Position numbers and translations under genes: made by a program. Of a stretch of DNA of 52,123 bases, positions 2,541 to 51,337 are shown piece by piece. Each line of letters begins with the position of its first letter. Positions within the stretch are counted from its first letter, which is position 1. The DNA comes from Patescibacteria group bacterium (GTDB taxonomy: Bacteria > Patescibacteriota > Minisyncoccia > Phycocordibacterales > WO2-35-19): assembly GCA_038065655.1 (NCBI GenBank), contig JBBTQO010000013.1:1-52123 (forward strand), in the 5' to 3' direction. The notes under the pieces are model-generated. The model was not told the origin of the DNA, made no database searches, and saw nothing but the letters and a program-made list of their open reading frames with translations.

Positions 2541-4449
<1,909 letters not shown>

Positions 4450-4456
4450 AAAAAAT

Positions 4457-4497
4457 CTCTTATTTCTGCTATTATATTTCATATTATGAAAACAGCA
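4457..4497 (+). repeat. 41-bp direct repeat, copy 1 (promoter plus start codon)
   Basis: CTCTTATTTCTGCTATTATATTTCATATTATGAAAACAGCA; 3 mismatches to 5459-5499. Confidence 0.9.
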
Positions 4498-5445
4498 CTA
4501 GTATGCGGGGCCGGAGGATTTATAGGTAGTCATCTTGTAAAAAAACTTAAAAAAGAGAAGTTTTGGGTTAGGGGTATAGACCTGAAGATGCCCGAGTACA
4601 GCAAAAGCTCTGCCGACGAGTTCATCGTCGGCGACTTAAGAAAACCAGAAGTGTGCCAGAAAATTTTGAATAAGTCTTTTAACGAAGTGTACCAGTTGGC
4701 AGCTGATATGGGAGGTGCTGGGTATATTTTTACTGGGGAACATGATGCGTGTGTTATGCACAATTCAGCAACAATCAACCTTAACATTGCGCACTATGGA
4801 CAAAAAGCGGGAATCAAGAAAATTTTTTATTCTTCATCTGCTTGTATCTATCCAGCCGAAAACCAAACTGATCCAAATAACCCAAATTGCGCTGAAAATT
4901 CTGCCTATCCAGCTAACCCAGACAGCGAGTACGGGTGGGAAAAACTTTTTAGCGAGAGGATGTATTTATCTTTTTATAGAAATTACGGATTGCAGGTAAG
5001 AATTGCGCGCTTTCATAACATTTTTGGACCAGAGGGTACATGGAAAGGTGGTAAAGAAAAAGCTCCCGCCGCGATTTGTCGAAAAGTGGCAGAGACTCCA
5101 GAGAGCGGAGAAATAGAGATTTGGGGTGACGGCAAACAAACCAGGTCATTTCTATATATTGATGAATGTCTTAATGGCATCAGACATTTGATGGATTCCA
5201 ATTTTACAGGACCTGTAAATATCGGGTCAGAAGAAATGATATCCATAAACGATCTGGCGAAAATGATTATGAAAATTGCAGATAAAAAGTTAAAGATTAA
5301 ACACATAAAAGGCCCTTTGGGGGTTAGGGGCAGAAATTCAGACAACAAGCTGATTTTTGAAAAACTTGGGTGGAAACCGTCAAAACCCCTTATAGAAGGA
5401 ATAAAAAAAACTTACAAATGGATAGAGGAACAAATCTGTAAATAA
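4486..5445 (+). CDS. GDP-mannose 3',5'-epimerase-like extended SDR (copy 1)
   Basis: GAGGFIGSH, LAADMGG, SSACIYP, YGWEK, RFHNIFGPEGTWKGGKEKAPAAICRK, GVRGRNSDN match plant GME signatures. Confidence 0.85.
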   Translation: MKTALVCGAGGFIGSHLVKKLKKEKFWVRGIDLKMPEYSKSSADEFIVGDLRKPEVCQKILNKSFNEVYQLAADMGGAGYIFTGEHDACVMHNSATINLNIAHYGQKAGIKKIFYSSSACIYPAENQTDPNNPNCAENSAYPANPDSEYGWEKLFSERMYLSFYRNYGLQVRIARFHNIFGPEGTWKGGKEKAPAAICRKVAETPESGEIEIWGDGKQTRSFLYIDECLNGIRHLMDSNFTGPVNIGSEEMISINDLAKMIMKIADKKLKIKHIKGPLGVRGRNSDNKLIFEKLGWKPSKPLIEGIKKTYKWIEEQICK

Positions 5446-15876: not shown

Positions 15877-16845
15877 ATGCAAAAAACAGCATTAGTTTGC
15901 GGAGCGGGAGGTTTTATAGGAAGTCATCTGGTTAAAAAACTTAAAAAAGAGAATTTTTGGGTTAGAGGTGTGGATCTCAAAAAGCCAGAGTATAGCGAAA
16001 GTGTGGCGGACGAATTTTTAGTCGGCGATTTGCGAGATCAAGAGGTGTGTAAAAAAATACTAGATAAGGCATATGACGAAGTCTACCAGCTAGCCGCTGA
16101 TATGGGAGGAGCTGGTTATATCTTTACGGGAGAACACGATGCTGATGTGATGCATAACTCCGCTACTATAAATCTCAATATTGCTTGTTACGGACAAAAG
16201 GCCAATATAAAGAAGATATTTTATTCTTCTTCTGCTTGCATATACCCCGCCCGCAACCAGACTGACCCAGAGAATCCAAACTGTAGCGAAGAATCCGCCT
16301 ACCCCGCTGACCCTGACAGCGAATACGGCTGGGAAAAATTGTTTAGTGAAAGATTATACCTTTCTTTTCATAGAAATTATAAAATGAATGTAAGAATTGC
16401 GAGATTTCATAATATTTTTGGTCCAGAAGGTACATGGCGCGGAGGCAAAGAGAAGGCACCCGCCGCCATTTGCAGGAAAGTAGCAGAAGCGAAAGAAGGA
16501 GGAGAAATAGAGATATGGGGAGATGGCGAACAAACACGTTCATTCCTCTATGTAGATGAGTGTCTTGAGGGAATACGCAGACTAATGGATTCAGATTTTA
16601 CGGGACCAGTAAACATAGGGTCAGAAGAGAGTATATCTATAAACAATTTAGCAAAAATGGCTATGGACATAGCAGGCAAAAAATTAAACATCAAACATAT
16701 TCTGGGACCCTTGGGAGTACGGGGAAGGAATTCTGACAACAGGCTTATAAAGGAGAAACTTGACTGGACTCCAGAGAAGTCACTCAAAGAAGGTATGACA
16801 AAAACTTATAAATGGATTGGGACACAAGTGATTAGTTCTAGATAA
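15877..16845 (+). CDS. GDP-mannose 3',5'-epimerase-like extended SDR (copy 2)
   Basis: Same signatures as 4486-5445; 50 of the first 59 aligned residues identical by hand count. Confidence 0.85.
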   Translation: MQKTALVCGAGGFIGSHLVKKLKKENFWVRGVDLKKPEYSESVADEFLVGDLRDQEVCKKILDKAYDEVYQLAADMGGAGYIFTGEHDADVMHNSATINLNIACYGQKANIKKIFYSSSACIYPARNQTDPENPNCSEESAYPADPDSEYGWEKLFSERLYLSFHRNYKMNVRIARFHNIFGPEGTWRGGKEKAPAAICRKVAEAKEGGEIEIWGDGEQTRSFLYVDECLEGIRRLMDSDFTGPVNIGSEESISINNLAKMAMDIAGKKLNIKHILGPLGVRGRNSDNRLIKEKLDWTPEKSLKEGMTKTYKWIGTQVISSR

Positions 16846-19717: not shown

Positions 19718-20695
19718 ATGGCAAAAAAAGCTTTAATAACTGGTGTAACTGGTCAAGATGGTGCTTACTTGGCCCAATTTTTATTAAATAAAGGATATGA
19801 AGTTTTCGGGCTGGTAAGAAGGGCAGTAAATAGAAATTTTGAAAATTTAGAGTATTTAGGTATAGAGAATAAAATAGATTTAGTTGATGGAGATTTGACA
19901 GATGAAGCTTCGTTGATTAATGCGGTAAAAAGAATCTATCCGGATGAAATTTATAATTTAGCCGCCCAATCGTTTGTTGGCACTTCTTGGGATCAGCCAG
20001 TGGTAACTTGCGAAATAAATGGCATGGGTGTGTTGAAGTTGCTTAACGCAATAAAAATCTGTTGTCCTACGACAAAATTTTATCAGGCTTCAACTAGTGA
20101 AATGTTCGGTAATGTCAATACAAACGACACTCAAGGTGAAGAGACGCCTTTTCATCCTAGGAGCCCTTATGCTATCTCAAAACTTTTTGCCTATTGGATA
20201 ACTATTAATTACAGGGAGAGTAACAATATGTTTTGTTCTAACGGCATACTTTTTAATCACGAATCACCAATTAGGGGAAAAGAGTTTGTCTCTAGAAAAA
20301 TTACCGATGGTGTGGCTCGCATAAAACTTGGTTTAGCCAAAGAAATAAGATTGGGTAATTTAGATAGTCGCAGAGATTGGGGTTTTGCTGGAGACTATGT
20401 TGAAGCTATGTGGTTGATGTTGCAGCAAAAAAATCCAAATGATTTTATTATTTCCACAGGAAAAACGAATAGTATTAGGGATTTCCTGAATTTAGCTTTT
20501 AAGTGTGTTGGTATAAATGATTGGCAACCATATGTAAAAATAGACCCGCGATATAAAAGGCCGGCTGAATTGTTCACCTTGCAAGGAAAAAACAACAAAG
20601 CTAAAAAGATTTTGAACTGGAAACCGAAAGTATCTTTTGAGGAATTAGTTAAAATGATGGTTGTGGCCGATTTAAAAAGATTGAGCAAGAATTAA
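19718..20695 (+). CDS. gmd: GDP-mannose 4,6-dehydratase (second, divergent copy)
   Basis: ITGVTGQDGAYLA, AQSFV, YQASTSEMFG, SPYAISK, NHESPIRG.EFV. Confidence 0.93.
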   Translation: MAKKALITGVTGQDGAYLAQFLLNKGYEVFGLVRRAVNRNFENLEYLGIENKIDLVDGDLTDEASLINAVKRIYPDEIYNLAAQSFVGTSWDQPVVTCEINGMGVLKLLNAIKICCPTTKFYQASTSEMFGNVNTNDTQGEETPFHPRSPYAISKLFAYWITINYRESNNMFCSNGILFNHESPIRGKEFVSRKITDGVARIKLGLAKEIRLGNLDSRRDWGFAGDYVEAMWLMLQQKNPNDFIISTGKTNSIRDFLNLAFKCVGINDWQPYVKIDPRYKRPAELFTLQGKNNKAKKILNWKPKVSFEELVKMMVVADLKRLSKN

Positions 20696-26111: not shown

Positions 26112-27148
26112 AAAATTATATTTAAAATATCTTTAGCTAGTATTTTGGGAGTAAATTTTTCTTGGTAGAGCTTATAGCCATTCTCCCCTATTTTATTTCT
26201 TAATTCTGCATTTTCTTTTAATAAGAGTATTTTATTTTTTAAATCTTGTGGATCTGCCGAATTTACAAACAAAAGACTTTCTCCGTCTTTTAAAATTTCG
26301 GTAATCGGTGCTGTGCGAGCTGTGATATAAGGTAGTCCTAAAGCAAGTGACTCAAAACATTTGTGGGGAATAGTGCGCTTTAGCCTCTCATGATATTCAA
26401 ACTGCCCTAAAGAAACATGGCATTCTAGCATTTTTGTTCTCAACTCATTATATGATAAATTTCCTGAAATAAATTCTAAATTTTTTAATTTAAAATTTTG
26501 TATTTGTTTTTTTATATTTTTCTCTAACCATCCATTACCTACAATCAAAAAATCTACATTTTGATCTTCAAGTAGTTTGACAGTTTCTATTATATATTTT
26601 ACTCCGGCTTCAGGCAAAAACTTGCCTCTAAATAGTACAGTAAATATCTCTCTTTTTTTAATACTGGGATTAGGGTAAAACACCGAATTATCCGCTCCAG
26701 TATAAACAACTTTGTATTTAGAATTTTTACCAAATTTATTTTCAAAATATTTTCTTTGTTCTTCGCTTTCAACTAGCACAATATCAGCACATTTCACTGC
26801 CAGCCAATCTATAAATTTTATATAATAATACTTAATACTTAATACATTATACTGTTGTCTGGAGATCATCACTCCCTCTTCCATAGTGCAAAGCGCGTCA
26901 AAAATAACCTTTTTATTTGATAAGAGTTTTGCAAACCAGACGACCGCATGACCGGGATAACCAACTATTAAAAAATCATAGAAATTTTTGGTTTTAGAGT
27001 GTTCTTTAAACAACTTCCAATATTTTAAAAAGCCTTTTGAATCATCTCTACATTCTAATATTTCTACTCCATTTTTTTTGAGTCCTTTTATATATATTCT
27101 GCTTCTTCCCCATTCAGAGTTATATGTACCAAAATAACAAATTTTCAT
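26108..27148 (-). CDS. GT4 glycosyltransferase
   Basis: FRGKFLPEAG, IPHKCFESLALGLP. Confidence 0.82.
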   Translation of the reverse strand: MKICYFGTYNSEWGRSRIYIKGLKKNGVEILECRDDSKGFLKYWKLFKEHSKTKNFYDFLIVGYPGHAVVWFAKLLSNKKVIFDALCTMEEGVMISRQQYNVLSIKYYYIKFIDWLAVKCADIVLVESEEQRKYFENKFGKNSKYKVVYTGADNSVFYPNPSIKKREIFTVLFRGKFLPEAGVKYIIETVKLLEDQNVDFLIVGNGWLEKNIKKQIQNFKLKNLEFISGNLSYNELRTKMLECHVSLGQFEYHERLKRTIPHKCFESLALGLPYITARTAPITEILKDGESLLFVNSADPQDLKNKILLLKENAELRNKIGENGYKLYQEKFTPKILAKDILNIIL

Positions 27149-28815
27149 TTTATTTTTGCATTATTACAGTCTAGTACTTGAGCTGTTATGTATCCATCTT
27201 TTCTTTCATATATATTTTTGCAGGAATTTAGATAATTATAATAAAAATTATTATCCCCTATTTTTGGTATATTTATGTAAAGAATTTGGCCTGAAAAAGT
27301 TTTGAAAAAATCTTTATACGTATCTTCAAACTGGGGTGCTGCGTATAATCTTCTTTCATACTTTCCCAGTTTTTGAATTTCATAACCTCCTATATCGTTA
27401 TAAACTAACACCAATTTTATATTTTGATCTTTAATAATAAATTCTTTCGCATCTCGAAAGAGATCATAAGGACTACCATTAATTTTACCGAACAAATATT
27501 CTTCGATAAATACAGCATTGTATAAAATTCCTAAAACTAAAATACCAAGCAATAATTTTTTTCTGACTAAAATTAAAGAAGTTACCCAGATAAGAGCAAT
27601 AAACAAAAAAGAAATATAAAATCCAGTTGGCCCAGAACCACCGGTAAAGGGGAACAAGAAGTCCCATTTTAATGACACCAATCTTGCTAGCCACTCTGTC
27701 TTTGGATAAAGAGGCGGTACAAAGTGATTTAAAAATTGGAGAGAAAATATTATTATAGTAATAACTCCAATGGCAATCCCCTCTCTTGTAATAAGAGAGG
27801 GGCCAAGCGGAGCGAGAGAGGGTGAGTTATTTGATTTAGAGAAATTTTGCGAGAAAATAGATCCAGCAATAATACAAAGTGGAATAATGAGAAATTGAAA
27901 ATATCTATCCAAAGCTCCGATAGAAAAATCAAACAAAACCAAATAAAACAATAAACCTAAACCGATAAAAATAAAAAAGACTCTCATTTTTTTAAATATC
28001 TCTTTATCTACAAAAATAATTGATAAAACAAGGAGGGGTGAAGTATACATCATAGATTTGGCAAACTGAATAAATGTCTGGAGCCAGCCCCTGCCACCCA
28101 ATTTAAAAAAATGTTCCCAATATTTTACTGATGCTTCTAGGTTAAAAAATGGGAATATCAATTTTGCTAACAGGAGTAACAGTCCAAGAGCAATAGCCCC
28201 ACCAATCATAAAAAGTAAGTATTTTAAAATTTTCTTTCTGTCACTAAAAACATTTTTCTCAAAGGCAAAATCCAGCGCCAGCGCCCCTATTGCTATTACA
28301 AAACTGGCCTTTACAAAAAACCCCCCAATAGCCCCGATAATTAATAGACCTATCCAAATTAAATTTTGAAAATTGAAAATTCTAAATTGAAAATTCATTT
28401 TTCTTAATCTAAAATATCCTATCAACATAATTAAGAAAAATGACGGCATCACTGCTCCATCAATATCAACCATTAAACTCGCGAGGACAGAATAAAAAGA
28501 AATAGCAAAAAGTCCCACGCTCCAGAGAGCAGTTTTTGTGTTAAAAATTATCTTTACTAAATAAAACAAAAGAAAAAGATTTATAAAAGAAAATAGAAGT
28601 GGAATCAATCTAAAATTATCTGGCCCAAAAACTTGACCTAGATTTTTGTATATAAACTGCCCTACTGGAGGATGTGGTATATAACCATTGTCACTCAAAA
28701 CAATATTCGGCCACTTATACTCATCTTGATGATAAAGGTGGTTGATAGCGGGCAAACGCAGTGCAAGAAAAAGAACTACTATTCCAGCAAAAATAAAAAT
28801 TTCTTTTTTATTCAT
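27145..28815 (-). CDS. GT-C (PMT_2/ArnT-like) polytopic membrane glycosyltransferase
   Basis: HQDE, HPP, many TM helices, DRYF; start MNKKE at 28815 overlaps the upstream gene end. Confidence 0.7.
   Translation of the reverse strand: MNKKEIFIFAGIVVLFLALRLPAINHLYHQDEYKWPNIVLSDNGYIPHPPVGQFIYKNLGQVFGPDNFRLIPLLFSFINLFLLFYLVKIIFNTKTALWSVGLFAISFYSVLASLMVDIDGAVMPSFFLIMLIGYFRLRKMNFQFRIFNFQNLIWIGLLIIGAIGGFFVKASFVIAIGALALDFAFEKNVFSDRKKILKYLLFMIGGAIALGLLLLLAKLIFPFFNLEASVKYWEHFFKLGGRGWLQTFIQFAKSMMYTSPLLVLSIIFVDKEIFKKMRVFFIFIGLGLLFYLVLFDFSIGALDRYFQFLIIPLCIIAGSIFSQNFSKSNNSPSLAPLGPSLITREGIAIGVITIIIFSLQFLNHFVPPLYPKTEWLARLVSLKWDFLFPFTGGSGPTGFYISFLFIALIWVTSLILVRKKLLLGILVLGILYNAVFIEEYLFGKINGSPYDLFRDAKEFIIKDQNIKLVLVYNDIGGYEIQKLGKYERRLYAAPQFEDTYKDFFKTFSGQILYINIPKIGDNNFYYNYLNSCKNIYERKDGYITAQVLDCNNAKIK
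27771..27830. repeat. Palindromic element family A, in frame inside the GT-C gene
   Basis: Perfect 10-bp inverted repeat CCCCTCTCTT/AAGAGAGGGG; reverse complement closely matches intergenic 39208-39265. Confidence 0.85.
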
Positions 28816-28819
28816 AATT

Positions 28820-29467
28820 TTATTTTTTCTCCCCCACAAAAAGCATCTGACCAGCGAAAGGTTTAAATGGGGAATAAATGTAAGTGCGAACAACGTATGG
28901 TAAGAGAAAATTGGGAATAAGAGAAGAATTAGAACGCATTGAAAATGGCAAGAAACGCGACATTTTCAATAAAATTTTAAAATTATAAGAAAGAAGAAAA
29001 CTTTCCAAAGCAAAATCGCTAAAAACTTTTTTATGAGTTGGGTCATCAAAATAATTTTTATATGATAACCTATAATTCGGTTGCATTAGTATCAATTTGC
29101 CATCCTTTTTTAATACTCTATTTATTTCCTTCATAACCTTTCCAAGCTCTTCATCAGTAAAATGCTCAAATAAATTACTGGCGTGCATTACATCTACCGA
29201 ATCATTTTTGATTTCAAAAAGATTCCAAGCCGGTTGATTTATCTGGATTGTATCTTTATTTGCAAACTTTGAAAGTTCTGGCGAAATATCTACCGCATAC
29301 TTTTTATCGGCTTTAATATTGTTTATAAAATCACAATAACCTGCGCCCAAATCAATAATCACTCCGTTTTCTGGGATATATTTTTTTAAGAATTTTACTA
29401 TTTCTTTCCACACAATAGAACGTGATGGATTGAATGTAAATCTGGATTCGTAATATTTATCTTTCAT
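28820..29467 (-). CDS. Class I SAM-dependent methyltransferase
   Basis: IDLGAGYC, SNLFEH, VLKKDGKLI, DDPTH. Confidence 0.85.
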   Translation of the reverse strand: MKDKYYESRFTFNPSRSIVWKEIVKFLKKYIPENGVIIDLGAGYCDFINNIKADKKYAVDISPELSKFANKDTIQINQPAWNLFEIKNDSVDVMHASNLFEHFTDEELGKVMKEINRVLKKDGKLILMQPNYRLSYKNYFDDPTHKKVFSDFALESFLLSYNFKILLKMSRFLPFSMRSNSSLIPNFLLPYVVRTYIYSPFKPFAGQMLFVGEKK

Positions 29468-36207: not shown

Positions 36208-37371
36208 TTAAATAATATTATTAAACACCACCCGCATTTGTTGGGCGACCAAATCCCAATCATATTTTTCTTTGACCATATTAAAGGCGTTATTTATTAT
36301 TTGATTTTTATTGGGATCGGTAATAACTTTTTGGATAGTCTTGGCGATACTCTGTGGATTTTGGGGCTCACAAAAATAACCTGTCTTTTCATCTATTAGA
36401 AAATCAACAATGCCACCAACTGAGGTTGCTATAACAGGGATTTTACAAGCCATTGCTTCTATAAAAGAATTACCAAACCCTTCCGAAAGCGAGGCTCTAA
36501 TAAAGATATCACAAGCTTCTAAATATTTTGGCATATCCTCGTGCGAAACAAAACCTTTGAAAACAACTTTCTCTGAAACATTAAGATTTTTAGCGAGCTC
36601 TTGTAATTCTTGTTTCAATTCACCCTCTCCAAATATTACAAATATAATATTTTGATTTAACTTAGGTAAAGCTTTTATAACATCCCCTACTCCGTTTTTT
36701 AAAACAAGTCTTGAAGTAGTTATAAGCGCAGTATCTCCTTCTTTTACTCCCAATTCTTCTCTTATTTTATTTTTTTCTTCTTGATTTATTTCCTTTTCAA
36801 ATTTGGACATATCCACTCCGTTTGGAATTATTTTTATTTCGCTAAGATAGCCAAATCTTTTAGCCCGTTCGGCTAAATATGAACTTAAAACTGTCAAAAT
36901 GCTTGTATTTTTCAGCGCTAACCACCAAGATAAATTTATGAGTCCAAATCGACTATTTTTAAAATGTTCTTCTGAATCTCCTTCTTGCAAGGTTAAAATT
37001 ATTGGTACTGGTTTCCAAAATCTTAAAATATTAGCTATAAAACCTGCGCCACTTGCATAAGTCACCATCATGCACCAATAAAAATTATAATTATTTTTAT
37101 TATTTAATTTTATCGCCTTCAACGCTCCCCAAAAAGGTAGAAGTAGTTTGTCTAAAATAGGTACACCAAATCCTAATCTGTAAACATTTACATTGCCGAC
37201 TCTCTCTGGCATGTCAAAGGGCATCTTTGACACTTTACTATTCAGTCTGGCGGTGATTAAATCAAATTCAATATCAGGAATTCTGTCAGTAATTTCTTTA
37301 ATAGCCACTTCCGCCCCGCCCACCAACGGATAATACGCTGTTGAAAATATGAGTATTTTTTTAGTTTTCAT
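36208..37371 (-). CDS. GT4 glycosyltransferase
   Basis: PLVGGAE, TLQEGD, SRLV.KNG, SEGFGNSFIEAM; ATG at 37371 lies 6 nt after TGcTATATT. Confidence 0.88.
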   Translation of the reverse strand: MKTKKILIFSTAYYPLVGGAEVAIKEITDRIPDIEFDLITARLNSKVSKMPFDMPERVGNVNVYRLGFGVPILDKLLLPFWGALKAIKLNNKNNYNFYWCMMVTYASGAGFIANILRFWKPVPIILTLQEGDSEEHFKNSRFGLINLSWWLALKNTSILTVLSSYLAERAKRFGYLSEIKIIPNGVDMSKFEKEINQEEKNKIREELGVKEGDTALITTSRLVLKNGVGDVIKALPKLNQNIIFVIFGEGELKQELQELAKNLNVSEKVVFKGFVSHEDMPKYLEACDIFIRASLSEGFGNSFIEAMACKIPVIATSVGGIVDFLIDEKTGYFCEPQNPQSIAKTIQKVITDPNKNQIINNAFNMVKEKYDWDLVAQQMRVVFNNII

Positions 37372-37406
37372 CCTCAAAATATAGCAAAAAACAAGCCTTT
37401 AAGCCA

Positions 37407-39197
37407 CTATTCTCCTTTTAGAATTTTCCTTAGCGTTTCCTCAGGCACTTCCTTTGTTTTTTCTGTTTTTTTAACTTCTTCCTTTTTTTCTTCTTTTTTG
37501 CTCTCAGCTTTTAGTTCTAAGCTTTTGGCTTTTTGTATCGCCTCCCTCAACGCGCTTACATTTTCTATAGTAGGTTCTTTGTTTTTATTTTTCTCCCCAT
37601 ACCTCAATTCTTGTAACGACACTGTCTCTTTTTTTTGCTCTGATTTTATCTCATCCCTTTTTTCTTCCCTTGCTACTGGCTGCTTGCTACTGGCTGCTGG
37701 TTTTTGTTTTACCGCTTCTTCTATCGCTTTTGCCAAAAAATTATTTTCTTTTTTGGGTTCTGCTTTTATTTCTTTTGGTTTATTTTGTTCATATCTTATC
37801 TCTTTTTTTGTCTCTGTGGGTTTTTCTTCTCTTCGTATTTCATGCTTCATATTTCTCCCTTCGATTTTTTCTGGTTCACCCACCCGCAATGGCTTCGCTA
37901 TAAGCGAGTCGGGCAGGTGCCATTCCTTAATAACCCTTTCTACTTCTGCTTTTGGAGAAGTATAATTTTTCCTAGACATTTCTAGAGCCTTATCTCTAAA
38001 AGAAATTTCTGGTTTTGGAAAAGGAGGTAAAGTGGTCGCTGAAAACGGCTGCGAAGCCACTCCATTTATCATTAGTTTTAAATAAACCTGAACAAATCCT
38101 AAATTAACGATATCTTCCATAGTAAAAGTCGGAGCAAATTCTTTTTCCAAAACTTCAGCATCATAGGAACCAACCCTAAAAGTAATCATAGTGCCAACGT
38201 TGCCAAACACGGCAGCTCTCACCTCTTCAGCCATCTGTTCAATATATTGATGAGTAATATTTAAACTTAATTTGTATTTTCGAGCCTCAGATAAAATATC
38301 AGCAAAACTTTTGTTAGCAAAAGATTGAAACTCATCTACATACAAATAAAAATTAGGCAATTTTTTAAGCTCTTTTGGGTCAGCATCCGCTCTAGACATC
38401 GCCGCTAAATATATTTTAGTGACAAGCATTGCTCCCAAAAGATTGGCATTGCCTTCTCCCACTAGCCCTTTAGATAGATTCACTATTAATATCTTCTTCT
38501 CATCCATTATTTTCCTGACATCAAAAGAAGATTTGGGTTGACCAATAATATTTCTAATAAGCGGATTAGATACAAATTGACCGACTTTGTTTTGGATAGC
38601 CGGAGTAGCCTCGGCCGCATATTTGTCCGTATATTTAGCAAATTCTTCTGTCCAAAAAGCCTTGGTGGTTGGGTCTTTGACATTGTCCACCACTTTATTA
38701 CGATAAGCTTTGTCAGTAAGCATCCTATTTATACTAAGCATTGTTGCTCCCGGATATTCAAGGAGTGCTGCCAGAGTATTTTGTAAAATGTAAGCCATTC
38801 TGGATGACCATTGATCCTCCCAAATCTTTTCAAAAGCGCTCATCAATCCTGAAACCACCAAGTGTCTTCTTTCCGGTCCAACATCCTCCATCACATTAAA
38901 CGAGATAGGAAATTCAGTATCAAAAGGAGCAAAATAAATAACATCTTTGATGCGATGTTCTGGAATATAATCAAGCAAGAGATCAGCAGTTTTGCCGTGC
39001 GGGTCTAAAAAGGCCACCCCCTCACCATTTTGAATATCTTGGATAGCCATATTTTCCAGCATCGTAGATTTACCCATACCAGTTTTGCCGATGGAATAAA
39101 TATGGCGAAGACGATCTTCAGCTTTAATACCAAACTTCACTCGCTTGTTGCGTGAGTCAGTCTCGGCAAAATAAGTTATCTTATCTTTCTCGTCCAT
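37407..39197 (-). CDS. VirD4/TraG-like (T4SS DNA-binding domain) P-loop ATPase with charged C-terminal tail
   Basis: DR.RHIY.IGKTGMGKS Walker A, LYVDEFQ Walker B, EARKY, HQY. Confidence 0.8.
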   Translation of the reverse strand: MDEKDKITYFAETDSRNKRVKFGIKAEDRLRHIYSIGKTGMGKSTMLENMAIQDIQNGEGVAFLDPHGKTADLLLDYIPEHRIKDVIYFAPFDTEFPISFNVMEDVGPERRHLVVSGLMSAFEKIWEDQWSSRMAYILQNTLAALLEYPGATMLSINRMLTDKAYRNKVVDNVKDPTTKAFWTEEFAKYTDKYAAEATPAIQNKVGQFVSNPLIRNIIGQPKSSFDVRKIMDEKKILIVNLSKGLVGEGNANLLGAMLVTKIYLAAMSRADADPKELKKLPNFYLYVDEFQSFANKSFADILSEARKYKLSLNITHQYIEQMAEEVRAAVFGNVGTMITFRVGSYDAEVLEKEFAPTFTMEDIVNLGFVQVYLKLMINGVASQPFSATTLPPFPKPEISFRDKALEMSRKNYTSPKAEVERVIKEWHLPDSLIAKPLRVGEPEKIEGRNMKHEIRREEKPTETKKEIRYEQNKPKEIKAEPKKENNFLAKAIEEAVKQKPAASSKQPVAREEKRDEIKSEQKKETVSLQELRYGEKNKNKEPTIENVSALREAIQKAKSLELKAESKKEEKKEEVKKTEKTKEVPEETLRKILKGE

Positions 39198-39207
39198 TTT
39201 GTTTATT

Positions 39208-39330
39208 ATAACTCATCCCCTCTCGCTTTGCTCGGCCCTTCTCTTATTACAAGAGAAGGGTTGCCTTCGTTCAAGCCTAGATTACCTCTCTTGTTGTAAG
39301 AGAGGTCGAGACGTAGTCCGTGTGAGTTAT
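39208..39330. repeat. Two inverted copies of palindromic family A
   Basis: 39208-39265 and 39284-39330 each start ATAACTCA and carry a CCT(C/T)TCTT...AAGA(G)AGG hairpin. Confidence 0.75.
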
Positions 39331-40505
39331 TTCCCAAGAATGGCTTCTCTCGTATAAACATTACTCGGATCCCAGAGCATCCAGGAAGTTAAACCCACAT
39401 CATAAGTGGCTTGGATTTGTTTGCGAACCATATCGGCTGTGTAATGCACGGGGTAATCATTGTCTTGAAGCCAAGGACGGAGTTGCAGCTGGTTTATCCT
39501 TTTCAAGACCGGAGCATTAGGGGTGCTCGAAGCAATTTCATTATGCAAGAAATTTGCTCTAGCCACCGCCGCATCCATACTAAACTTAACAATCTCATAA
39601 GGCACTTTATTTGGATCAGGCCAACCATTAAATGTTGGTGGATAATGTGATGGATAAACCATCGGGGAAACATAATCAAAATTTAGAAGCGCATATTCCA
39701 AAACTTGTCCGATATTCATATCGTCAGTGTTAGTAGTTGTCATACCAAACAAATCAGCTGAGGTAACAATGCCCGAGGAAGCAAGTTTAGAGTCAAGATA
39801 TTCAAAAAATTGCCTGAGCATCTCTTTTTTAGTAGTAGTGCCAGTATGCGCAAAATAAATATCTTTCATATCGCCATCCGATGGGAAACGGATATAATCA
39901 TAATTAATTTCATCAAAACCAACAGCATATGAAGAAGTAGAAATAGAAATTATATAATCCCAAAACGGTTTTGCCCCAACATCAATAAAAGAAATACCTT
40001 TCCTATCTTTCCAAACACCACCATCACTTTTTCTTTTAACGGCCAATTCCGGATGAGCTTTAGCATAAAGCGGATCTTGAAAGACGGTTACTCGGCCAAT
40101 TACATAAATATTTTTATTATGCAATTTTTCCACAAAATCCTGCATATCAGAAACTTTGCAACCAGTCCCGCTCAACTTATCAATCTCATCATTACCAGTC
40201 AAAAAAGAAACTGTGCCAGTATAATCTTTAATATCTATAACTACAGCATTGATTTCCGTTTCTTCTATAAGTTTTACAACTTTGTTCCTAAATGAAGGTG
40301 TGCCAGCCACACATTGAGTCATATAAATACCCTTAAGTGGCTCTGGGGTCCCCAGATGCTTTACTACTTTTAGTTCAGGTGTGCTAGAAGCCACCTCAGC
40401 CGAACGACTATTATAAGAAACTTCTGAAGAAAAAGTAAAAGAAGAAATAAAAAAAAGAACGATAATAACTATGATTCCTCCCAGTAAATAATTTTTTAAT
40501 TTCAT
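39327..40505 (-). CDS. Putative glycoside hydrolase (DUF4015-like TIM barrel), membrane-anchored
   Basis: KGIYMT, VIDIKD, FQDP, DYIRFP, DYVSPMVYPSH, PWLQD; start MKLKNY. Confidence 0.75.
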   Translation of the reverse strand: MKLKNYLLGGIIVIIVLFFISSFTFSSEVSYNSRSAEVASSTPELKVVKHLGTPEPLKGIYMTQCVAGTPSFRNKVVKLIEETEINAVVIDIKDYTGTVSFLTGNDEIDKLSGTGCKVSDMQDFVEKLHNKNIYVIGRVTVFQDPLYAKAHPELAVKRKSDGGVWKDRKGISFIDVGAKPFWDYIISISTSSYAVGFDEINYDYIRFPSDGDMKDIYFAHTGTTTKKEMLRQFFEYLDSKLASSGIVTSADLFGMTTTNTDDMNIGQVLEYALLNFDYVSPMVYPSHYPPTFNGWPDPNKVPYEIVKFSMDAAVARANFLHNEIASSTPNAPVLKRINQLQLRPWLQDNDYPVHYTADMVRKQIQATYDVGLTSWMLWDPSNVYTREAILGK

Positions 40506-40506
40506 T

Positions 40507-40605
40507 TTTTTCCAGAGGATGACCCTTGAACTGCCCCTGCCCCAAAGGGTCATCCTCAAATTCCGACCTCACCCCCAACCCCCTCTCCTTGCGAAGGAGA
40601 GGGGG
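40507..40605. repeat. Composite element: family B inverted repeat plus GCG-loop hairpin
   Basis: 13-bp IR (40515-27/40545-57) plus 12-bp IR (40579-90/40594-605); colinear with 51222-51337. Confidence 0.8.
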
Positions 40606-40870
40606 CTTCAGAAAATTTTAGTTCTTCTCTCTCCTCTATCTTCTCTTTTATTTCCCCCTTAAGATAAGGGGGATTAGGGGGGTTATTTTTTTTAGTTTTA
40701 ACTTTTGGTTTTGATTGCAGCTTTCTTAAAATGGCTGGACCAAAAGAAACAAGTAATAAAAATAAGCCAGAAAGAAAAACTAAAGCATCTCGCCAAACGA
40801 TTGGCACTCCAAGTAAAGGAATAATAACGAGCCAAACACCAAATGAAATATAGAAATTATTTTTATTCAT
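40556..40870 (-). CDS. Small two-TM membrane protein with a palindrome-derived tail
   Basis: GVWLVIIPLLGVP TM hairpin; TGcTAGTAT-N6-ATG. Confidence 0.7.
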   Translation of the reverse strand: MNKNNFYISFGVWLVIIPLLGVPIVWRDALVFLSGLFLLLVSFGPAILRKLQSKPKVKTKKNNPPNPPYLKGEIKEKIEEREELKFSEAPSPSQGEGVGGEVGI

Positions 40871-51183: not shown

Positions 51184-51221
51184 ACGATAATTATAACGCA
51201 ATTTAAAAATAACTCACCTTC

Positions 51222-51337
51222 TTTCCCAGAAGATGACCTTTGAAGATTCTGCCCCAAAAGGTCATCTTCGAATTCCTAATCCGACCCCACCCCACTTTCC
51301 TTCGGAAAGTCGCCCCTCACCTTGCGAAGGTGAGGGG
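51222..51337. repeat. Composite element (family B IR plus GCG-loop hairpin), copy 2
   Basis: 13-bp IR 51229-41/51257-69 and 11-bp IR 51313-23/51327-37, with compensatory changes versus 40507-40605. Confidence 0.8.

Follow-up and report, generated by a model that had tools for sequence, protein, structure and literature searches.

How does a palindromic repeat come to lie, in frame, inside a gene for a membrane glycosyltransferase, and what could have carried it there? The question is raised by a stretch of 52,123 nucleotides, hereafter the window, from contig JBBTQO010000013.1 (assembly GCA_038065655.1) of a Patescibacteria group bacterium in the GTDB lineage Phycocordibacterales; WO2-35-19. 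An earlier note, made from the sequence alone, described a palindromic element inserted in a GT-C glycosyltransferase gene of the window, likened it to the Rickettsia palindromic elements (RPEs), and looked to an HUH enzyme of the REP-associated tyrosine transposase (RAYT) type as its partner. The element is real and in frame. It behaves like an RPE, in that a dispersed palindrome adds a peptide without breaking the frame, it is built like a BoxC/PIT repeat, and it is related to DUF559 nuclease cassettes, whose gene it lacks. We consider it probable, with moderate confidence, that the insert belongs, as a copy without a gene, to a lineage-specific repeat family whose ends are shared with cassettes for a DUF559 nuclease, which would itself play a part in the family. 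The physical and numerical partner of the family is this Vsr-like nuclease gene and not a RAYT gene; the nuclease may also be what mobilizes the repeats.

The insert occupies 27761-27830 on the minus strand, 70 bp with both termini present. The earlier note had placed it at 27771-27830; that segment is real, but the second terminus was missed, and the length is 70 rather than 60 bp. On the minus strand, the element opens with the terminal tail ATAACTCAC (27830-27822), which is followed by the long-form segment CCTCTCTCGCTCCGCTTGG (27821-27803), the hairpin CCCCTCTCTT-ATTAC-AAGAGAGGGG (27802-27778), and ATTGCCATTG leading into the second terminus GAGTTAT (27777-27761). This terminus reads TGGAGTTAT at 27761-27769, and the two ends form the inverted pair ATAACTC...GAGTTAT. 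The claimed match between the reverse complement of the insert and an intergenic copy was borne out: 27778-27830 (minus) and 39208-39260 (plus) agree at 87% over 53 nt, the longest inverted pair in the window. The 20-nt hairpin core has six matches in the window, compared with 0.00 expected from 100 shuffles, none of which matched it. A covariance model of the family, R1, recognizes the insert at 27778-27830 on the minus strand (E 1e-8) and at 27761-27802 on the plus strand (E 1e-6).

The host gene (27145-28818, minus strand) encodes a GT-C membrane glycosyltransferase of family GT39 (PMT_2), with 557 aa from the ATG at 28818 or 582 aa from an alternative TTG at 28893. It sits within a glycosyltransferase gene cluster. 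Its product matches PF13231 (E 3.4e-6) and has 451 homologs of about 555 aa, in whose alignment invariant residues are retained on either side of the insert. The insert corresponds to residues 329-352, peptide NNSPSLAPLGPSLITREGIAIGVI; the loop peptide NSPSLAPLGPSLITREGIA is encoded in an unbroken frame, as the earlier note had claimed, and the junction peptide is SNNSPSLAPLGPSLITR. In an AlphaFold2 model of the protein (predicted local distance difference test, pLDDT, 85; predicted template-modeling score, pTM, 0.87), pLDDT drops below 50 over just one long segment, residues 329-340, which make up the first half of the insert. Helix 303-327 precedes this segment, and helix 340-362, which begins with the second half of the insert, follows it. 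The insert is thus predicted to consist of 12 disordered residues and the start of the following membrane helix. Judging from the conservation of the frame, it is very probably translated as a disordered loop.

An ordinary conserved loop can be ruled out, since the element is missing from 105 of 120 homologs, which have a plain loop of 50-59 residues with a recurrent KLxKxDF-like motif, and from all 13 readable GT39 orthologs of related species. These sequences bear out the expectation that relatives would lack the peptide, but 12-14 orthologs at 57-68% identity have an element-derived peptide in the same loop, which by the standard of the earlier note partly counts against its reading. Two forms occur. 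The long form (NSPxLAxLGPSLxxREG) is found in three homologs, the protein of the window included, and the short form (SPLxPLLDKERG...WGE), an ordinary unit with both termini in the same frame, in about nine to twelve. The element DNA of the carriers still matches the repeat family, and the carriers are scattered on a maximum-likelihood protein tree whose well-supported branches require at least two changes per form. Close pairs (P0016 and P0017, P0009 and P0003) differ in the element. The two forms, the scattered carriers and the family-matching DNA together favor recurrent or converted insertion over an ordinary conserved loop. A single ancient insertion was rejected, because the tree forces at least two origins or losses for each form. 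In the carriers, the element takes the place of about 11-17 ancestral loop residues. Orthologs P0004, P0010 and P0028 have longer loops of 74-94 residues, with signs of nested or extra insertions at the same place (in P0028, for example, TSALTPLLRPDDSVGRVDKERGKK).

The element is also the best-conserved stretch of the GT39 gene when the window is compared with the two other long-form orthologs (62-68% amino acid identity). DNA identity is 85-89% over the 24 codons of the element. Identity at third codon positions is 83% over these codons and up to 96% in the best overlapping 24-codon window, compared with 47-49% over the whole gene. Conservation of this kind is unlike that of an ordinary decaying insertion. 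The element could have been inserted repeatedly, converted from other copies, or kept under selection for its nucleotide sequence.

The genome that holds the window (603 kb, 21 contigs, 36.9% G+C), whose proteins have homologs labeled Patescibacteria or Parcubacteria, was searched first by pattern and then with R1, which was built from 32 units. The genome-wide count that the earlier note had proposed came to about 63 full-length units at E <1e-4, approximately one per 9 kb, several of them in frame in housekeeping genes. Each unit starts with ATAAC-(T/C/G)(C/A)(A/C/T)(C/T), followed by a C-rich run, a spacer of 2-4 nt and a GC-rich stem of 9-12 bp, pyrimidine in its 5' arm and purine in its 3' arm. 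In the stem, 99.7% of cells pair, with 42 double-sided changes and a covariation score reached by no shuffle; the missing G-T pairs are partly a matter of construction, because the first set of units demanded perfect stems. The pyrimidine tail ATAAC-TCAC-CCC is the mirror image of the adjacent hairpin arm, and this mirror relation also covaries (6.34, compared with 5.90 +/- 0.11 in shuffles, reached by 0 of 2000).

Units occur solo, tail-to-tail, as inverted pairs of 84-123 bp with outward tails, and at the ends of cassettes of about 480-580 bp. The pairs have the ends ATAACTCAC...GTGAGTTAT. In six pairs at unrelated loci, the similarity stops exactly at ATAAC and GTTAT, and two pairs (C5:39296-39386 and C20:13786-13876) are 99% identical despite their different loci. 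All 16 species examined from the same genus have R1 matches (2-74 per genome), as do seven of eight further genera in the family; 16 other families of the order have none. The rplJ leader of this genome holds a 95-nt tail-to-tail pair that is absent from the two closest congeners (L10 80-81% identical), and the units in the rplJ-rplL spacer differ from genome to genome. These distributions mark the family as lineage-specific, with positions that turn over.

One frame of the unit is open and reads N-S-P-x-x-P-L-L-x-x-E-R-G, which allows copies to persist within genes as additional loop residues. At least seven genes hold in-frame copies, which run in either orientation. Besides GT39, these include SecA (C21:2933-2971, after the scaffold domain and ahead of the C-terminal SEC-C zinc motif), methionyl-tRNA synthetase (MetRS; a double unit at C12:19903-19989, inside tRNA-synt_1g), and a DUF4147/MOFRL glycerate-kinase-like protein (C1:109411-109451, reverse orientation), in all three of which Pfam matches flank the insert. 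The inverted double unit of MetRS adds about 30 residues inside the catalytic domain. Further copies lie in KsgA/RsmA (C3:2456-2492, aa 203-215, just past the RrnaAD match ending at aa 197), in a beta-CASP RNase (C9:62225-62261, inside RMMBL, the domain match stopping just before or at the insert), and in a large surface protein. In addition, 12 of the 63 units start exactly at the end of a long open reading frame (ORF), so that the TAA of ATAAC is the stop codon of the host, and many others adjoin start codons.

The association with DUF559 was noticed first through a small ORF bracketed by units. The only gene in the cassettes of about 480-580 bp encodes a Vsr-like PD-(D/E)XK nuclease of the DUF559 family (PF04480, E 1e-35; PDB 3hrl, E 6e-19), and D55, E66, D68 and H72 are invariant in 15 DUF559 sequences, including E. 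coli YcjD. R1 units lie within 150 nt of three of the four DUF559 genes in this genome and of about 16 of 27 in relatives. Eight DUF559 genes are bracketed on both sides by inverted units, and the remaining ones are flanked by other pyrimidine/purine hairpins. In the 546-bp cassette C1:79135-79680, positions 1-33 and 488-546 align with the 91-bp gene-less pairs at 91-92% identity; such pairs are the ends of a DUF559 cassette minus the gene. In two relatives, DUF559 genes lie between long-form ends that resemble those of the GT39 copy. Among 41 genomes, the number of DUF559 genes correlates with the number of units at rho 0.89 (0.87 within the family), and still at 0.76 after three units per gene are removed.

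The association extends beyond this lineage. At 29 DUF559 loci sampled from Patescibacteria, hairpins occur at 3.9/kb near the gene and 0.2/kb elsewhere in these loci, a 20-fold difference; 15 of these loci have hairpins on both sides, and the tail-arm mirror score across the phylum is 0.758, compared with 0.647 +/- 0.013 in shuffles (0 of 1000). A search with YcjD as query gave 71 full-length YcjD-like loci from Enterobacterales, Alpha-, Beta- and Gammaproteobacteria, Melainabacteria, Elusimicrobiota and others. Units stand at the gene ends in 67 of the 71 (3.4/kb, compared with 0.23/kb elsewhere), a count to be read with care because many of these loci are syntenic enterobacterial orthologs and hence not independent. 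DUF559 reading frames regularly end within a unit in many lineages. The C-terminal residues of the nuclease are often encoded by the repeat (..GSLPLS, ..NNPLNPPYNKGE.., ..QQSPPP; in YcjD, ..RRSPSP).

The units of this family share their plan with the BoxC/PIT/TM-ECO intrastrand-triplex repeats of E. coli (PMC4666352). Both are laid out in three blocks, in which a spacer separates the tail from a pyrimidine/purine hairpin and the tail mirrors a hairpin arm; both occur singly or in inverted pairs, and in both the number and position of copies vary between relatives. The tail-spacer-arm CTCACCC(C)-TAA-CCC(C)TCTC is nearly identical. E. coli MG1655 has 21 matches to the BoxC pattern CCCTCACCCTAACCCTCTCCCC, of which the counterpart here is CTCACCCCTAACCCCTCTC. 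Judged by eye and by pattern rather than with a joint model, E. coli CCCTCACCC-TAA-CCCTCTCCCC resembles (AA)CTCACCCC-TAA-CCCCTCTCTT of the present family, down to the same A interruption in the tail. The units differ from BoxC in their AT-richer arms and conserved ATAAC end, in their density (about one per 9 kb here, compared with 21 in 4.6 Mb), and in often lying in frame inside coding sequence.

MG1655 has exactly one DUF559 gene, ycjD. Its frame ends in a BoxC-like half (..TCACCCTCTCCC TGA), and a full BoxC copy lies 168 nt downstream; by our own arithmetic, one of 21 BoxC copies would by chance lie no more than 200 nt from a given gene with a probability of about 0.003. Between BoxC and ycjD (K-12, NC_000913.3, 1351205-1351430) there is a duplicate of approximately 35 nt of the ycjD 3' end (ccgaatattctccagcaccgtctcc), and the start region of ycjD is covered by an AT-rich palindrome with 16-bp arms. 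Holder et al. (2015; PMC4666352) reported that mobility functions were never found near TM-ECO sites. In the open-access literature and preprints, we found no paper on these elements in Patescibacteria, nor one tying DUF559/ycjD to BoxC.

We propose that the DUF559 nuclease spreads or maintains the repeats. The nuclease would recognize or cut their folded ends (a hairpin, possibly a triplex) in trans, and host repair or replication would then copy elements to new sites or over resident copies. Copying in trans would explain the swings in copy number among congeners, the 99%-identical pair, the nucleotide conservation in GT39, and the patchy recurrence of the element. Several points weigh against this proposal. 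The DUF559 paralogs of this genome are old (46-78% identical), so no recent movement of cassettes is seen. One genome, G024, has 10 units with a single DUF559 gene, and G014 has nine units with none. In most other lineages, the units are oriented differently about the gene than they are in this family. The six gene-less pairs show no target duplication longer than 2 nt, and a TA/AT duplication would be inseparable from their palindromic termini. The replacement of ancestral loop residues in GT39 is not what a simple insertion model predicts. Besides the restriction of the first unit set to perfect stems and the synteny of the enterobacterial loci, it also counts that translation of the insert is read from its conserved frame, and that triplex formation is suggested by sequence symmetry alone.

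The proposal can be taken further, although at that point it becomes tentative and, on balance, doubtful. DUF559 could be the missing enzyme partner of BoxC/PIT triplex repeats bacteria-wide, homing to hairpins and, in Patescibacteria, rewriting loops within reading frames. The best conservation of the GT39 gene falling in its element, the two forms on separate branches, and the replacement of the ancestral loop would then be explained. If this were true, the rewritten protein loops would include those of GT39, SecA, MetRS and KsgA, filled with translated repeat DNA.

The strongest rival, which we regard as rather unlikely, makes the nuclease a passenger or parasite of repeats that spread otherwise, by replication or repair at folded DNA or through an unidentified enzyme. 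DUF559 cassettes, behaving like homing endonucleases, would settle preferentially in resident repeats, and the pairing of gene and units would reflect habitat rather than mobilization. The gene at C1:79135-79680 is flanked by a short direct repeat of the hairpin 3' arm (AGAGGGG / AGAGGGT), which fits insertion into an existing pair as well as deletion from a cassette. DUF559 copies are old and gene-less pairs young, there are about 15 units per DUF559 gene, and Vsr-like proteins include a homing endonuclease (PMC3424549, VSR/DUF559 clade), all of which suit a passenger. A passenger does not so readily explain why gene-less elements retain, beside the hairpin, about 16-20 nt resembling the DUF559 3' end; by eye, this is the case for 39261-39283 in the window when it is compared with L069. 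Furthermore, DUF559 frames end within the unit in E. coli and in this lineage alike, and for such distant organisms this points to a long co-evolution of the gene and its ends.

The sequence just cited is the spacer of an intergenic, gene-less compound element at 39208-39330, which has two hairpins and the same termini as the GT39 insert, facing outward. The earlier note had seen both copies present here but took them for two neighbors rather than one compound element. No other unit is as closely related to the GT39 copy as the left, long-form one (39208-39260, plus); by eye, the spacer looks like the 3' end of the DUF559 cassettes of relatives. The right unit (39284-39330, minus) carries the stop codon of a glycoside-hydrolase-like gene (DUF4015; 39327-40559, minus), the TAA of its ATAAC terminus, which agrees with the overlap claimed before. 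Ten nucleotides separate the left terminus from the ATG of a TrwB/VirD4-like gene. A TATAAT hexamer does adjoin the 39208 copy (GAGTTATAAT), 7 nt ahead of this ATG, but the -10 box that the earlier note made of it is not part of a full sigma-70-type promoter, as judged by a simple consensus scan.

Could the units, then, be non-mobile functional motifs, such as gene-boundary signals, terminators, promoters or mRNA-stability hairpins, with the GT39 peptide an ordinary lineage-specific loop? The units that begin exactly at host stops or adjoin start codons would suit such a role, as would a nucleotide conservation in GT39 that exceeds the needs of the protein. We nevertheless consider this very unlikely. 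A promoter or terminator role was rejected when the scan of 39100-39400 found neither a full promoter consensus nor an intrinsic terminator with a T-run, and PIT elements are reported to have neither promoter nor terminator activity in E. coli (PMC4666352, citing its reference 41). The in-frame copies in both orientations, the sharp ends of similarity, the nearly identical pair at unrelated loci, the presence or absence of the element at orthologous sites, and the range of 2-74 copies among congeners also speak against a fixed signal.

The transposase foreseen by the earlier note belongs, as far as can be seen, to another repeat. Seven RAYT-like PF01797 (Y1) genes of about 220-250 aa with HUH (HFHLL) and YIHxNP motifs are indeed present in the 603-kb genome (C1:5206-5865, C1:57468-58208, C4:11982-12668, C6:12943-13623, C15:12022-12678, C18:4504-5157 and C20:2895-3584). 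Their best NCBIfam match is the REP-associated tyrosine transposase, at 41-53 bits compared with an 80-bit cut-off. One of the seven is broken by a TAA; relatives have 0-10 copies per genome, and seven is unusually many for so small a genome. Three of the seven are flanked by a different palindrome, CAAAGGGCACCTTTG, whose family, (GTG)TCAAAGGGCA(C/T)CTTTGA(CAC), has 27 copies genome-wide (for example at C1:5164 and 5871, C6:12918 and 13584, and C15:12708), about half of them within ORFs. A Y1 gene flanked in this way has the classical layout of repetitive extragenic palindromes (REPs) and their RAYT genes. The second family also occurs in double long-hairpin forms, and one copy in the window (37212-37232) is in frame in the gene 36208-37377 (minus), where it encodes SKVSKMPFDMP.

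That a RAYT moves the present family, as REP/REPIN-type elements are moved, is the least likely explanation that we considered, even though the unit layout (a 5' tag and a hairpin, single or in inverted pairs) resembles REP and bacterial interspersed mosaic elements (BIMEs) and the second palindrome family shares the AACTCA tag: R1 gave one weak match over 27 Y1 loci (seven here and 20 in relatives; 103 kb), none of which is flanked by the family, Y1 genes are common in 9 of the 16 sister families without units, and they correlate more weakly with unit counts (rho 0.54-0.59). A RAYT/HUH partner was accordingly rejected for the BoxC-like family and fits the second palindrome family instead. The REP tag at one end of the palindrome is a conserved GTAG or CGTC (PMC3733652), and the tag of the present family, ATAAC-TCAC, is neither.

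The window holds further units. The shorter relatives claimed at 78-112 and 39284-39330 are both members, all four units concerned being matched by the covariance model; the former (plus strand, E 2.4e-7) is a solo unit with one arm mismatch, ATAACTCAC-CCCA-CCCTCTCTT-ACAAC-AAGAAAGG. A unit of the ATAACCCCC subfamily (40653-40690, minus) is in frame as NNPPNPPYLKGE in a small ORF (40556-40870, minus). A BoxC-like unit of another subfamily, ACCTCACCCCCAA-CCCCCTCTCCTT-GCG-AAGGAGAGGGGG (40566-40605, plus; relative at 51249-51307), overlaps the 3' part of the same ORF and matches in type the short form that GT39 orthologs L031 and L032 carry. This ORF encodes 104 aa with an N-terminal membrane-like segment, and two repeat units supply its C-terminal half (NNPPNPPYLKGE... 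and ...PSPSQGEGVGGEVGI); either the protein has a repeat-built tail or the ORF is miscalled. A third repeat, a long palindrome of the type GAAGATGACCTTTGAAGATTCTGCCCCAAAAGGTCATCTTC, is found at 238-286, 40520-40560 and 51221-51269, mostly joined to a BoxC-like unit; at 51209, the same ATAACTCAC end precedes it. Rfam at gathering threshold reports only 5S and 23S rRNA in the window and no known RNA family at the repeats. Elsewhere in the window, segments 2544-3293 and 19724-20452, and likewise 4489-4788 and 15883-16182, are 73-77% identical in DNA; they lie in the sugar-nucleotide/glycosyltransferase cluster and were taken for ordinary paralogs.

Among known systems, the RPEs (Ogata et al. 2000 and 2002, as reviewed in PMC10969869) share with the present family a dispersed palindrome in a reduced genome, in frame in unrelated housekeeping genes, which adds a peptide in tolerated regions and encodes no transposase. 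The likeness is one of behavior, by analogy, and we do not claim membership in RPE-1 to RPE-10. The elements here measure 35-123 bp rather than about 100-150 bp, belong to another sequence family, composition and phylum, and are distinguished by the pyrimidine/purine hairpin with a mirror tail, the ends shared with a nuclease cassette, and the many copies on stop codons. REP/BIME/REPIN-RAYT systems (PMC3116915, PMC3337134) likewise combine a short hairpin with a flanking tag, occur as single units or inverted doublets, persist in a lineage-specific manner, and include a small nuclease-type gene bracketed by inverted units. Here, however, the bracketed gene is a PD-(D/E)XK Vsr-like DUF559 nuclease and not HUH Y1, and the RAYT-like genes of this genome go with the other palindrome family. 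Miniature inverted-repeat transposable elements with autonomous partners (e.g., Correia elements; PMC10969869) resemble the family in their terminal inverted repeats and sharp ends, and in gene-less copies that are both ends of a longer gene-bearing copy. In contrast, the partner gene here is no known transposase, and no clear target-site duplication was found at six copies.

The locus ties BoxC-type repeats to a concrete candidate partner, the DUF559/YcjD nuclease, and provides a second, independent case of translated repeats of the Rickettsia type. For annotation, it matters that units create or overlap stop codons, extend C-termini, insert about 12-30 residues, and mislead start-codon calls. 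The conservation of the element's nucleotides within a coding loop, across species with saturated synonymous sites, is unusual and points to DNA or RNA structure inside the gene as the target of selection or conversion. In genomes of approximately 600 kb, which are regarded as streamlined, dozens of selfish or semi-domesticated hairpins are tolerated and perhaps maintained, some of them inside essential genes.

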